Source: a plasmid
Sequence record: CP051941.1
Reading direction: 5' to 3' (one strand)
Length of the DNA: 25,435 nt
Part shown: piece by piece, positions 11,972-14,182 of the stretch
Numbering within the stretch: position 1 is the first letter of the stretch
Layout of the letters: every line of letters starts with the position of its first letter
The notes under the pieces: model-generated
The model's database searches: none
Seen by the model: the letters and a program-made list of their open reading frames with translations, nothing else
What the model was told of the DNA's origin: nothing
Made by a program: the position numbers and the translations under genes

Positions 11972-12136
11972 TTTATTCCAATTGCTTTATTGACGTTGAG
12001 TTGAGCCTCGGAACCCTTAACAATCCCAAAACTTGTCGAATGGTCGGCTTAATAGCTCACGCTATGCCGACATTCGTCTGCAAGTTTAGTTAAGGGTTCT
12101 TCTCAACATCAATAAATTTTTTCGGCATAAATGCGT
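11972..12136. repeat. Structured palindromic element, copy 1 (about 165 bp).
   Basis: About 95% identical to 14023-14182, with an extra ttgag in this copy. Nested complementary arms: ttgacgttgag/ctcaacatcaa, gaacccttaac/gttaagggttc, cttgtcgaatg/cattcgtctgcaag, gtcggc/gccgac. A tttttt run follows. Confidence 0.6.
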
Positions 12137-12182
12137 GTCTATGCGTAGACATGGAGACACTTCAGAATTATGGAGTGATTAC

Positions 12183-12260
12183 ATGAGTTTAACTATTTTT
12201 CTTTATTCAGTTTTAGGAAGTTTATTAGCAAATTATATCTACGAAAAATCTTCAAAATAA
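12183..12260 (+). CDS. Hypothetical 25-aa hydrophobic peptide.
   Basis: MSLTIFLYSVLGSLLANYIYEKSSK, with RBS ggagtga 7 nt upstream. One TM helix plus a charged tail. Confidence 0.3.
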   Translation: MSLTIFLYSVLGSLLANYIYEKSSK

Positions 12261-12355
12261 ATAACTTTTTCGGTTCTATTTTGTACACTTTATCTACCTG
12301 GTAGACCTAATTGTTATTGCTTTACAGGTCTAAAATTCGTCGTTATAATCTAGTT

Positions 12356-12433
12356 AAATCCCGTAAGGGCGCACTTATACGTCGGATAAATCGACATGTG
12401 CAAAAACGTAATCGACCTTCGTCGATTTTTTTA
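12356..12433 (+). ncRNA. Candidate small RNA (about 78 nt).
   Basis: Near-consensus promoter (-35 TTTACA 12321-12326, 17-bp spacer, -10 TATAAT 12344-12349). The transcript contains a cccgtaaggg hairpin and ends at terminator atcgaccttcgtcgat plus six T (12411-12432). No ORF. Confidence 0.4.
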
Positions 12434-12611
12434 TTTCAAAATTAAAGAAACGGCTTGAGATATTCCGAGCAGTTATAAAAATTAATTTGCGTTGAATATT
12501 GCTACTACATTCTTGAAAAAGTGATGTAGATTTATAGCCCATAACTTTTTTGAATTACATCGACGATACGGCGTCGAAAGAAAAATAAATAGACCGTATG
12601 AAAGAAAAAGC

Positions 12612-12646
12612 TACCTCACTTTATCTGGGGTAGCTTTTATTTTTTA
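12612..12646 (+). terminator. Rho-independent terminator.
   Basis: agctacc-N13-ggtagct hairpin followed by ttttatttttt. Confidence 0.45.
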
Positions 12647-12649
12647 TGC

Positions 12650-12906
12650 CCTTATTTTGAATTTTAAGAGGGCATTTTAAAGATTTAGGGGTGATTCATA
12701 TAGTTTTATATCTAAAACTTATATATGCTTTTAAAACGCAAATATGAGCCAAATAAATATATGCTATTTTCAAAAACAAAAATTTGAGCAAAAACAATAA
12801 CTATTTTTAGACACTGCCCATTTACATGCAAATTAAAAATTAGCATAAAATTCTTTAAAACTTCCCCACGTTTTTCTAAATTCCTGTAGGGCGTTTTTAT
12901 CAAAAA
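12650..12906. repeat. About 260-bp direct repeat, copy A.
   Basis: About 85% identical to 14390-14651 in the same orientation. Shared blocks include aaaacgcaaatatgagccaaataaatatatgcta and ctgcccatttacatgcaaat-taaaaattagcataaaat. Confidence 0.6.
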
Positions 12907-13025
12907 TCAAGACAAGAAGAAACTCGTTCACACTCGTTTCAAAAAAACAAGAAATCTAATCTATACACCTACCGTTTTCCAACCCCCTCAAAGCATACAA
13001 ATTAAAAACAAAATTATTCATAATC

Positions 13026-13220
13026 TTACTTTCTTTTAACAAAAACATAAAAACCATAAATAGACAAATTAACTATCAAAGGCAATAAACAGTATAAAAA
13101 AACCACGAATAAATCTTCATCAACATCTAAAATAAAAAAGAATAAAACAATTAACAAAATACTAATTAACAAACCTAAAAGTGGCAAACTTTTTATATAT
13201 TTTTCTAAATTTTCATTCAT
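13026..13220 (-). CDS. Hypothetical small membrane protein (64 aa, two TM helices).
   Basis: MNENLEKYIKSLPLLGLLISILLIVLFFFILDVDEDLFVVFLYCLLPLIVNLSIYGFYVFVKRK, with RBS aaaggag upstream. It is divergent from the 13330-14022 gene. The ORF track starts it at an upstream ATG (13238). Confidence 0.5.
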   Translation of the reverse strand: MNENLEKYIKSLPLLGLLISILLIVLFFFILDVDEDLFVVFLYCLLPLIVNLSIYGFYVFVKRK

Positions 13221-13329
13221 AAAATAGACTCCTTTCAAAAATATGTTTATAAATATATTAAAATAAATATTGATTTTATAAAGCGCTTACTTATACAATT
13301 AAAATATCTTATTATCTTGGAGGTATCAA

Positions 13330-14022
13330 ATGAAAATTATAAAATTATTTTCAATAATTTCCTTGTTCCTACTGGTATTTAGCGCGAATTTTTCTAATGC
13401 TTACGCAAATGAAGAACAAAAAAGTTCTTTACTAGAAAATCAAAAAGAAAAATTGAAAAGCAAAAACATCGAAGTATCACAAATGACCAAGAAAGAAATA
13501 AGTTTTCTAGAACAATTGCAAAATAAAAATGAAGATATGCAAAAATTCGAAAAGCAAATGAAAAAAGAAGGATTTAAAAAAATAAAGCTAGAAGACAAAA
13601 ATTCTAAATTAAAATATCTAGCTACAGAAGCAAATGATAAAAATGCATATGGCTACATAGCTAATAACGCTTATAAAAATGAAAAAACAAAAGAAATTGT
13701 AGTTTCTGAAACAATATATGATAACTACAACAAAAAAATCACAAAATTCATTGCCGAAAAAAGAAGTATGACTGAAAACAAAGAGGGAAAAATACTTATT
13801 AACAAAAATTACGTTGAATATAAGGCTGAAAAAGTTGATAAAAACAGACCGGTAACATATGCAGGATTCAAATGGAACGGCAAAGCATTCGCTTGTAGTA
13901 TGGCTGGACTTTATGCATGTGCTCACTACTGTGGAGTATGGGCAATCGTAAATCCAATAGCCGGCGGTGTATGTGAAGCAGTTTGCGGAACTGCATTTGC
14001 AGCTGGATGCTCTGTAGGTTGA
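13330..14022 (+). CDS. Signal-peptide-bearing protein with a K/E-rich coiled-coil region and a cysteine-rich C-terminal domain (bacteriocin/toxin-like). No recognised family.
   Basis: RBS ggaggt 5 nt upstream. Sec signal MKIIKLFSIISLFLLVFSANFSNAYA. The C-terminal 44 aa have six Cys spaced symmetrically (C-x7-C-x3-C-x13-C-x3-C-x7-C) within a Gly/Ala-rich tail. Confidence 0.6.
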   Translation: MKIIKLFSIISLFLLVFSANFSNAYANEEQKSSLLENQKEKLKSKNIEVSQMTKKEISFLEQLQNKNEDMQKFEKQMKKEGFKKIKLEDKNSKLKYLATEANDKNAYGYIANNAYKNEKTKEIVVSETIYDNYNKKITKFIAEKRSMTENKEGKILINKNYVEYKAEKVDKNRPVTYAGFKWNGKAFACSMAGLYACAHYCGVWAIVNPIAGGVCEAVCGTAFAAGCSVG

Positions 14023-14182
14023 TTTTATTCCAATTGTTTTATTGACGTTGAGCCTCGGAACCCTTAACAATCCCAAAACTTGTCGAATGGTCGGCTTAAT
14101 AGCTCACGCTATGCCGACATTCGTCTGCAAGTTTAGTTAAGGGTTCTTCTCAACATCAATAAATTTTTTCGGCATAAATACG
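14023..14182. repeat. Structured palindromic element, copy 2.
   Basis: Same nested stems as 11972-12136. It begins immediately after the TGA of the 13330-14022 gene and ends 7 bp before the convergent Cse60-like ORF, so it is placed to act as a bidirectional terminator. Confidence 0.6.

Follow-up and report, generated by a model that had tools for sequence, protein, structure and literature searches.

The lagging-strand origin of staphylococcal rolling-circle (RCR) plasmids, palA/ssoA, has been known since the 1980s (Gruss, Ross & Novick 1987; Kramer et al. 1997–1999; both as covered in the review PMC5703833). In the literature on this family, an imperfect palindrome of ~155 nt folds in single-stranded DNA, the host's RNA polymerase attaches to RSB at the hairpin base and makes a short primer RNA that ends at CS-6 in the terminal loop, and DNA polymerase I, followed by polymerase III, makes the duplex. 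Likewise short hairpins derived from cointegrated RCR plasmids are the oriT mimics of the pWBG749 and pSK41 families (O'Brien 2015, PMC4652767; Ramsay 2016, PMC4993578), which adjoin ssoA in the modules analysed here; the pWBG749-family mimic has a core, CTTATGCTCTT, flanked by IR1–IR3 and an AR repeat (O'Brien 2015, PMC4652767).

Here we analysed a stretch of 25,435 nt from plasmid CP051941.1 (the window), which is of the pUSA300HOUMR type, a theta-replicating (RepA_N), USA300-type resistance plasmid. It contains a repeated hairpin that the original prediction did not recognise as any described staphylococcal repeat. This claim fails: compared with ssoA family definitions taken from PMC5703833, PMC6395029, PMC8860593 and bioRxiv 2020.09.30.320143, both repeats are, on sequence evidence, the palA/ssoA lagging-strand origin, on the minus strand of the window (Table 1; see PMC5703833, PMC6395029). 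We consider it very likely (probability about 0.93) that the copies are palA/ssoA-type origins left as relics of two small RCR cassettes cointegrated into the RepA_N plasmid.

Table 1 Positions of the ssoA copies and of neighbouring features in the window.
Feature	Position	Strand	Description	Basis
ssoA/palA copy 1	11972..12138	-	Origin proper 12131->11972; with 5-nt GTTGA duplication	Repeat search, alignment, fold
ssoA/palA copy 2	14024..14185	-	Origin proper 14178->14024	Repeat search, alignment
RSB box, copy 1	12117..12131	-	TTTATGCCGAaAAAA; one mismatch versus pT181/pSSTET1 RSB TTTATGCCGAGAAAA	
RSB box, copy 2	14164..14178	-	Same G->A variant as copy 1	
CS-6 box, copy 1	12059..12064	-	TAGCGT, terminal stem-loop	
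CS-6 box, copy 2	14106..14111	-	TAGCGT	
pSK41/pGO1-type (Nes) oriT-mimic nick core	12356..12377	-	TAAGTGCGCCCTTACGGGATTT; about 250 nt 5' of ssoA copy 1, same strand	PMC4993578
pWBG749-family oriT mimic, OT49 variant O	14685..14809	-	About 520 nt 5' of ssoA copy 2	Exact match to published pUSA300HOUMR oriT
RCR rep 3' fragment	14885..15177	-	pUSA01-like	
pC194-family dso nick motif	10898..10913	-	Intact TCTTCTTGTCTTG/ATA; downstream of cadX; end of cadDX cassette starting at ssoA copy 1	
Second dso nick motif	12905..12920	-	TCTTCTTGTCTTGATt; end of bacteriocin cassette starting at ssoA copy 2	
260-bp repeat A	12646..12912	-	= pUSA01 1256-1525; conserved oriT-ssoA interval of pC194-family plasmids	
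260-bp repeat B	14389..14640	-	Same oriT-ssoA interval, second relic	
TIGR04450 putative immunity/bacteriocin fusion protein	13330..14022	+	Cys-rich, 230 aa; cargo; transcribed towards ssoA copy 2	
cadD	11288..11917	-	Cargo gene between ssoA copy 1 and dso motif	
cadX	10922..11269	-	Cargo beside cadD	
RefA1 sRNA match	12388..12610			Rfam
25-aa ORF	12183..12260			

Repeat search and pairwise alignment place the two copies in direct orientation, with sharp homology borders on the left (11972/14024) and right (about 12138/14185). Identity between the copies is 99% over a 136-nt core (12000–12135 versus 14047–14182) and 97% over the 29 nt of the left part (11972–12000 versus 14024–14052); in copy 1 only, the two parts are split by a tandem duplication of 5 nt (GTTGA), which produces an extra bulge in the stem. 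Either strand forms a single extended hairpin, nested and imperfect, with energies of −59.8 and −63.7 kcal/mol and z-scores of −7.7 and −7.3, and none of 200 shuffled sequences folded as well. The two-copy repeat and its long imperfect hairpin, as originally described, are therefore borne out by repeat search, alignment and folding (z about −7.5). The repeat occurs at 3,171 places across 1,969 PLSDB plasmids. Its description as a structured element present in many copies on plasmids of staphylococci is supported. Everything listed earlier for the interval between the copies (an sRNA, a 25-aa ORF, a ~260-bp repeat, a small ORF of 70 aa and a Cys-rich protein) was located.

The motifs expected of ssoA occupy their expected places in the fold. 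At the base of each hairpin, TTTATGCCGAAAAAA (12131->12117 and 14178->14164) matches 14 of 15 positions of the RSB, TTTATGCCGAGAAAA, a 15-mer found exactly in all six reference RCR plasmids. The mismatch of both copies falls within the RSB core (GAGAAAA to GAAAAAA); elsewhere this G-to-A variant was seen in 2 of 59 unique elements, SAP049A being one. The change could weaken RNA polymerase binding, and it would be compatible with selection on the origin being relaxed in a theta replicon. CS-6 forms the final stem and loop, with TAGC paired and GT inside a GTGA loop, and the conserved far (3') end, AATTGGAATAAA, is also present. Over its full length, the repeat is 96–98% identical to the origins of pUSA01, pSepCH, pS0385-3 and a pC221-like plasmid, and alignment shows that both of its ends are common to the palA of pT181 and pE194.

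Orientation and copy number can also be compared with those of small RCR plasmids, which carry exactly one ssoA copy each, oriented with rep. The origin lies on the rep strand in pUSA01, pSepCH, pS0385-3, the pC221-like plasmid and pE194 (all with rep annotated), and co-direction in the pT181 type follows from published coordinates of its near-identical relative pSSTET1. The window copies share their strand with both pC194-type dso nick motifs. They thus resemble the palA/ssoA of pT181, pC221, pE194, pSN2 and the pC194 family in size (155–160 nt), imperfect palindromy, RSB, CS-6, 3' end and rep/dso orientation, with the 96–98% identity being to the pC221/pUSA01 type. Unlike those origins, they reside in a theta-replicating 27-kb plasmid, are unneeded for its vegetative replication, and occur as two direct copies with a G-to-A change in the RSB core and (in copy 1) a 5-nt duplication.

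Among the 59 unique elements, which come from species-representative genomes, 10 families with unrelated interior sequences can be told apart, and all 10 share the same base architecture as single-stranded DNA (z from −4.5 to −10; for the pUSA01-type variant, −35.7 kcal/mol and z = −8.4 with DNA parameters). The interior of a whole-family MAFFT alignment was too poor for counting by columns, so pairs were assigned by how far they lie from each conserved end. Counted in this way, the third stem has 85% canonical pairs (versus 27–55% in shifted registers), and covariation between position 16 and its partner is perfect (T-A, n = 46; C-G, n = 12).

Each copy is part of a fossil RCR module made up of rep', an oriT mimic, ssoA, cargo and a dso nick. 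As the likely leftovers of two cassettes fused into a RepA_N theta plasmid, these modules have the order ssoA – cadDX – dso (cassette 1) and rep' – OT49 oriT – ssoA – bacteriocin gene – dso (cassette 2). The window from 15177 to 14347 is collinear with pUSA01 704–1570 (87% identity), the collinearity extends to 15177->14024 versus pUSA01 704->2086, and homology to pUSA01 ends at the nick of the 12905..12920 dso motif. Both dso nick sites (10913 and 12920, minus strand) match the pUSA01 dso over 29–41 nt and are intact or near-intact. Copy 1, placed upstream of cadD, follows no plus-strand gene, as had been noted, and it needs none because it belongs to the cadDX cassette. That oriT mimics were acquired through cointegration of cadDX RCR plasmids was concluded independently by O'Brien 2015 (PMC4652767).

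A natural variant bears on how the pair of copies behaves. SAP049A has the same backbone and a single chimeric ssoA copy, with the left flank and a SNP from copy 1 and the right flank and no duplication from copy 2. Against an artificial junction built with one copy, it aligns as one uninterrupted segment at 99.9%; 80% or more of the same junction is covered in 550 records. The chimeric copy therefore indicates that the 2.05-kb unit is an indel made by recombination within ssoA, which inserts or deletes the unit because the copies are direct repeats; SAP049A is the one-copy form. A role as recombination site, raised in the original prediction, is supported by the classical RSB inside the element and by this natural "empty site"; SAP049A is without the 2.05-kb unit but still keeps one ssoA copy. 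Cointegrates of pT181 and pE194 (Novick et al. 1984, as cited in PMC5703833) are alike in having breakpoints inside an RSB-bearing ssoA; compared with the RSB events in that cited account, the present case is fitted equally by RSB-specific recombination and by ordinary homologous recombination (~160 bp at 97–99% identity).

Origin function may instead have been lost in the theta plasmid, the copies being kept mainly as plus-strand terminators or insulators, for example of the bacteriocin gene. The bacteriocin gene stops 2 nt short of copy 2, which does sit between convergent genes (stop of the 230-aa gene at 14022, end of the minus-strand 49-aa ORF at 14190), and cargo genes converge on the same ssoA face in pSepCH (qacC), pUSA01 and the window. 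The plus strand forms a very stable hairpin followed directly by UUUUUU, in agreement with the T-run reported earlier (TTTTTT at 12117–12122 and 14164–14169), and the lineage-specific RSB change extends this run from UUUUCUC to UUUUUU. However, a terminator scan called neither copy, the basal stem beside the U-run is AT-rich where a Rho-independent terminator would have a GC-rich one, copy 1 has no upstream plus-strand gene to terminate, and conservation equals that in replicating RCR plasmids, so that we find this reading rather unlikely. In its original, bidirectional form it is not supported, since the only T-run is on the plus strand (where it lies opposite the A-run of RSB) and the minus strand has no U-run.

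Very little favours a small regulatory RNA encoded by the element: its strong, conserved secondary structure would suit one, but no promoter-like site was called to drive it, and invariant ends around a freely replaced interior are the pattern of a DNA hairpin origin. Comparison of the repeat itself with Rfam gave no match, whether the gathering threshold or E<=1 was applied, as expected of a DNA origin, and we judge the RNA reading highly improbable.

The suggestion of a MITE-like, non-autonomous transposable element inserted at two sites does not stand either. Such an element would be short, palindromic and multi-copy, as the repeat is in PLSDB, but there is no target-site duplication at either copy, the flanks are unrelated, and the sole terminal inverted repeat is the hairpin base. 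Synteny is constant everywhere, with oriT 5' and cargo plus dso 3' of ssoA and no scattered insertion sites, and small RCR plasmids hold one rep-oriented copy each. No plasmid with the same flanks and the element absent was found, the "empty site" keeping one copy, and we give this reading almost no weight.

Equally negligible is an identity as a pWBG749- or pSK41-family oriT mimic, which would explain why MOB-suite types most carrier plasmids as mobilizable and would suit the published mimics, which are branched hairpins, resemble the repeat in size and occur on roughly half of the plasmids of S. aureus: the element contains neither of the defining cores, CTTATGCTCTT and TAAGTGCGCCCT, which are found instead at 14686–14696 and 12356–12377, and the published pUSA300HOUMR OT49 oriT lies 500 bp away with no overlap. 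In the window, the sole match to the pWBG749-family core is on the minus strand inside that OT49_O oriT, and the sole match to the Nes nick core TAAGTGCGCCCTTACGGGATTT is on the minus strand between the copies; neither copy contains either. The missing core and the separate published oriT exclude the pWBG749-family identity in particular. The mimics differ from the ssoA repeat in sequence, in their relaxase-nicking function and in their nick cores, and are its neighbours only.

As neighbours, the oriT mimics nonetheless suggest a use for the ssoA relics. The minus strand carries the OT49 core and the pSK41-type nick as well as the two RSB boxes. At other loci, the oriT core shares its strand with the active form of ssoA in 42 of 45 cases and mostly lies 70–750 nt 5' of the RSB. 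Co-orientation is consistent only in the local module and not plasmid-wide; ssoA and oriT are on opposite strands in some large plasmids (L129, L130 and L131), and these counter-examples weaken whole-plasmid co-orientation as functional proof. Because inheritance of the RCR module as a unit accounts for most of the co-orientation, and because opposite-strand cases exist, the orientation statistic is no independent proof of function.

The predicted origins would work only with the minus strand of the window single-stranded. Since both oriT mimics are expected to be nicked on the minus strand, the transferred strand would carry both ssoA hairpins in their active orientation. During mobilisation in trans, the relaxase of a helper plasmid would nick this strand, and ssoA, 250–520 nt downstream, would enter the recipient early and probably prime synthesis of the complementary strand. 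By analogy, ICEBs1 needs an sso for stable acquisition after transfer, and its sso1 is a precedent for an sso on the transferred strand aiding establishment in the recipient (PMC4595007); ssoU/ssoA of pMV158 (Lorenzo-Diaz & Espinosa 2009, as cited in PMC5703833) offers the same precedent. We tentatively suggest, at less than even odds, that the ssoA relics and adjacent oriT mimics form a compact "transfer and establishment" module rather than being inert. The match of both dso sites to that of pUSA01 also makes it possible that a co-resident pUSA01 Rep might nick them, giving a ~2-kb rep-less circle of ssoA plus cargo, with cadDX. The papers on oriT mimics that we consulted nowhere mention sso, and neither the transfer-module idea nor that of Rep acting in trans was found there.

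The repeat belongs to the textbook knowledge of staphylococcal plasmids, and the observation, while real, is ordinary. The annotation of the repeat nevertheless reads "none" under every PLSDB and RefSeq match, and when an unlabelled hairpin repeat is met on a large staphylococcal plasmid, ssoA, dso and oriT motifs are the first to look for. Our analysis recognises two fossil rolling-circle cassettes within the cadDX–bacteriocin region of pUSA300HOUMR-type plasmids and documents a natural 2.05-kb indel from within-ssoA recombination. If the proposed role in transfer is true, ssoA relics on the transferred strand might raise the mobilisation efficiency of the oriT-mimic plasmids by which resistance spreads in S. 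aureus.

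A repeat search and a pairwise alignment of the window agree on two direct copies of the repeat, with 99% identity over a 136-nt core and 97% over a 29-nt left part; a 5-nt tandem duplication (GTTGA), present in copy 1 only, splits core from left part. From either strand, each copy folds into a single long hairpin, nested and imperfect, with free energies of -59.8 and -63.7 kcal/mol and z-scores of -7.7 and -7.3, equalled by 0 of 200 shuffles; the stem of copy 1 has one additional bulge. The repeat pair and its hairpins, as described in the original prediction, are thus real, and the ORF list, Rfam and NCBIfam likewise recovered the contents it had placed between the copies (a candidate sRNA, a 25-aa peptide, a 260-bp repeat and small proteins).

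In minus-strand orientation, both copies start with TTTATGCCGAAAAAATTTATTG, carry TAGCGT at the hairpin tip and end with AATTGGAATAAA. Since these are features of ssoA (formerly palA), the single-strand origin of rolling-circle (RCR) plasmids, we identify the repeat as palA/ssoA with its conserved RSB and CS-6 boxes, a real feature that was known already. In pSSTET1 (pT181-type), RSB is TTTATGCCGAGAAAA and CS-6 is TAGCGA (PMC6395029), while CS-6 is given elsewhere as TAGCGT, "the primer RNA transcriptional terminator" (bioRxiv 2020.09.30.320143). The ssoA/palA origin is ~160 nt long, includes the RSB site, is strictly orientation-dependent and is primed by RNA polymerase (Kwong et al. 2017, PMC5703833). 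The exact RSB 15-mer occurs once each in pT181, pE194, pUSA01, pSepCH, pS0385-3 and a pC221-like plasmid. In alignment A2, which compares window and reference copies, the ssoA of the last four is 96-98% identical to the window copies over its full length, whereas pT181 and pE194 palA share both ends with them and differ in the interior. The single ssoA lies on the rep strand in pUSA01, pSepCH, pS0385-3, the pC221-like plasmid and pE194 (orientation was counted only for small plasmids with an annotated rep gene); for the pT181 type, the same-strand orientation is taken from published pSSTET1 coordinates (PMC6395029).

A scan with the RSB 22-mer, using one genome per species, found at least 120 stretches, and the matches listed come from Staphylococcus, Mammaliicoccus, Macrococcoides, Salinicoccus, Limosilactobacillus and many Clostridia and Bacilli MAGs. 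Pooling these with seven further loci gave 132 occurrences, 99 of which contain the span from RSB to AATTGGAATAAA (135-157 nt, except for one 70-nt copy with an internal deletion). The 59 unique sequences among those 99 belong to 10 unrelated interior families, all 10 sharing a common ssDNA base architecture of 5-bp stem, bulge, 4-bp stem, internal loop and then long stem (z -4.5 to -10). When base pairs were tallied by distance from both conserved ends, pairing in the long stem was 85% canonical, compared to 27-55% in shifted registers; position 16 and its partner covaried perfectly (T-A 46, C-G 12), and several other paired positions showed three standard pair types. The conserved, covarying structure that the original prediction proposed to look for is thus present, and it confirms a known family, not a new one.

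The RSB 22-mer was also present in short contigs whose assemblies are labelled as Streptomyces, Kitasatospora, Actinoplanes, Prevotella, Desulfovibrio, Trinickia and Stutzerimonas (loci L016, L017, L023, L026, L033-L036, L053, L054 and L059). Some also carry staphylococcal-type oriT nick cores, and recorded coverage is very low in some; the contigs appear to be contaminants that stem from small staphylococcal plasmids or from vectors derived from pE194/pC194. L132 (NZ_CP095098.1) and L133 (NZ_CP077904.1), both from PLSDB, appear to be assembly artefacts: the first is a perfect tandem dimer in which each feature recurs at +16,317 bp, and the second is linear and contains a large inverted duplication.

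Around the repeats, a 6-kb stretch matches hundreds of S. aureus pUSA300HOUMR-type plasmids of 24-27 kb at 99.9% identity. Such plasmids encode blaZ, cadDX, an Fst toxin-antitoxin pair, a "putative immunity/bacteriocin fusion" and a RepA_N initiator; the plasmid of the window hence replicates in theta mode. Its two ssoA copies are explained by the fusion of two rolling-circle cassettes into this plasmid. BLAST showed 87% identity between collinear stretches of the window and pUSA01 (704->1570), followed by an ssoA match (window 14182->14024, pUSA01 1928-2086). The pC194-family dso nick motif is TCTTCTTGTCTTG/ATA (bioRxiv 2020.09.30.320143), and it occurs twice in the window, both times on the minus strand, as does ssoA. 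The minus-strand order is rep' - oriT(OT49) - 260B - orf49 - ssoA2 - (bacteriocin cassette) - dso' - 260A - oriT(pSK41-type) - ssoA1 - (cadD cadX) - dso, which is ~1.5 times the canonical ssoA - qacC - dso - rep of pSepCH (pC194-family). This order agrees with O'Brien 2015 (PMC4652767), who concluded that cointegration of cadDX rolling-circle plasmids gave large plasmids their oriT mimics and left rep fragments beside oriT. Plasmids that share the local module (oriT, ssoA, ~1.2 kb of cargo, dso) include pMW2, pCM05 and some from other staphylococcal species.

Features of the cassette region, in window coordinates
Feature	Position	Strand	Remarks
fstAT Rfam match	10622-10722	+	Fst-type type I toxin-antitoxin pair
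Fst-like ORF	10673-10765	-	30 aa; same pair
dso after cadX	10893-10921	-	29 nt identical to pUSA01 dso
dso nick motif, intact	10913->10898	-	directly past cadX
ssoA1 (copy 1)	11972-12138	-
25-aa hydrophobic candidate ORF	12183-12260	+	MSLTIFLYSVLGSLLANYIYEKSSK; directly after ssoA1; no match in Pfam or NCBIfam
RefA1 promoter, near-consensus	12321-12349
pSK41-type Nes nick core	12356-12377	-	outside repeat
RefA1 (Rfam "Enterococcus sRNA A1")	12388-12610	+	262 bits
RefA1 terminator	12606-12638
260-bp repeat, 260A	12646-12912		86-93% identity to 260B
second dso nick motif	12920->12905	-	pUSA01 homology ends at nick
dso relic	12905-12946	-	100% match to pUSA01 over 41 nt, up to nick CTTG/AT
ssoA2 (copy 2)	14024-14185	-
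260-bp repeat, 260B	14389-14640
pUSA01-collinear block	15177->14347	-	order: rep 3' part, OT49 oriT, conserved 260-bp region, small ORF, then ssoA2
pUSA300HOUMR oriT, OT49 variant O	14685-14809	-	exact match to O'Brien 2015 supplementary table; outside repeat
core CTTATGCTCTT	14686-14696	-	sole occurrence in window; outside repeat

Past the nick of the dso relic, the sequence joins directly to the 260-bp region and the whole rep gene is absent; a junction at this point is the hallmark of aberrant initiation or termination by Rep. The 260-bp repeat corresponds to the conserved non-coding oriT-to-ssoA region of pC194-family RCR plasmids (pUSA01 1256-1525, pSepCH 35-244) and is less conserved than the adjoining ssoA. 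pUSA01-type plasmids are found in the same USA300 strain collections (e.g. SUR series, adjacent accessions); judging from sequence identity, the Rep of such a co-resident plasmid might act in trans on the dso after cadX.

A synthetic one-copy junction (cadD flank, one ssoA copy, orf49 flank) was matched at 99.9% in one piece by SAP049A (25,022 bp), whose backbone is the same as the window's; coverage of this junction reaches at least 80% in 550 records. On its left, the single ssoA of SAP049A has the flank and SNP of copy 1; on its right, it has the flank of copy 2, and like copy 2 it lacks the 5-nt duplication. This chimeric copy is what one crossover inside ssoA predicts. The 2.05-kb event could be integration of a one-ssoA circle or deletion between two copies; the indel fits RSB as a historical cointegration site (PMC5703833), and ordinary homologous recombination would give the same product. 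Both window copies (at 12121 and 14168) and SAP049A share a rare G-to-A change in the RSB core (GAGAAAA to GAAAAAA), present elsewhere in 2 of 59 unique elements from the matches listed, one of them SAP049A. A shared rare variant suggests that the copies arose recently from a common source or were made alike by gene conversion.

The repeat had also been proposed to act as a bidirectional terminator. Its plus-strand T-run, complementary to the RSB A-run, is six T's long solely due to the RSB-core change. The stem adjoining the T-run is AT-rich, a terminator scan of the window called neither copy and the minus strand of the repeat contains no T-run, leaving bidirectional termination unsupported. 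Plus-strand cargo genes converge on the T-run face of ssoA in several plasmids; for these genes, the repeat may plausibly act as a one-directional terminator. Since the majority of the 1,969 PLSDB plasmids matching the repeat are typed "mobilizable", it was also suspected of being a pWBG749-family oriT mimic, but the core defining these mimics, CTTATGCTCTT (O'Brien et al. 2015, PMC4652767), is in neither copy.

RefA1 is antisense to the region directly 5' of the pSK41-type oriT-mimic nick, and the hairpin that starts its model, AAATCGACGAAGGTCGATT, is kept upstream of the pSK41-type mimic in many plasmids. In the window, the regions concerned are 12321-12645 on the plus strand and 12340-12400 on the minus strand. 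On this sequence context, RefA1 may be an oriT-associated sequence, instead of or besides an sRNA gene.

Theta plasmid replication needs no sso. The minus strand is both the ssoA-active strand and the strand nicked by both oriT mimics. What reaches the recipient is the DNA downstream of the nick (O'Brien 2015 discussion, PMC4652767), so both ssoA hairpins lie on the transferred strand in the correct orientation, at distances of 250 and 520 nt from the nicks. At other loci from the matches listed, 42 of 45 oriT cores share the strand on which ssoA is active (same versus opposite strand: pSK41 type 22:0, pWBG749 type 20:3). This co-orientation comes inherited with the module, and ssoA is opposite to an oriT in some large plasmids. 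The rare RSB-core change in both window copies and the extra bulge of copy 1 are further caveats to a present-day role. Stable acquisition of ICEBs1 requires an sso (PMC4595007). Identity, structure, orientation and recombination polymorphism are established by our data; for current function, we infer that the ssoA relics on the transferred strand may aid establishment of oriT-mimic plasmids after mobilisation.
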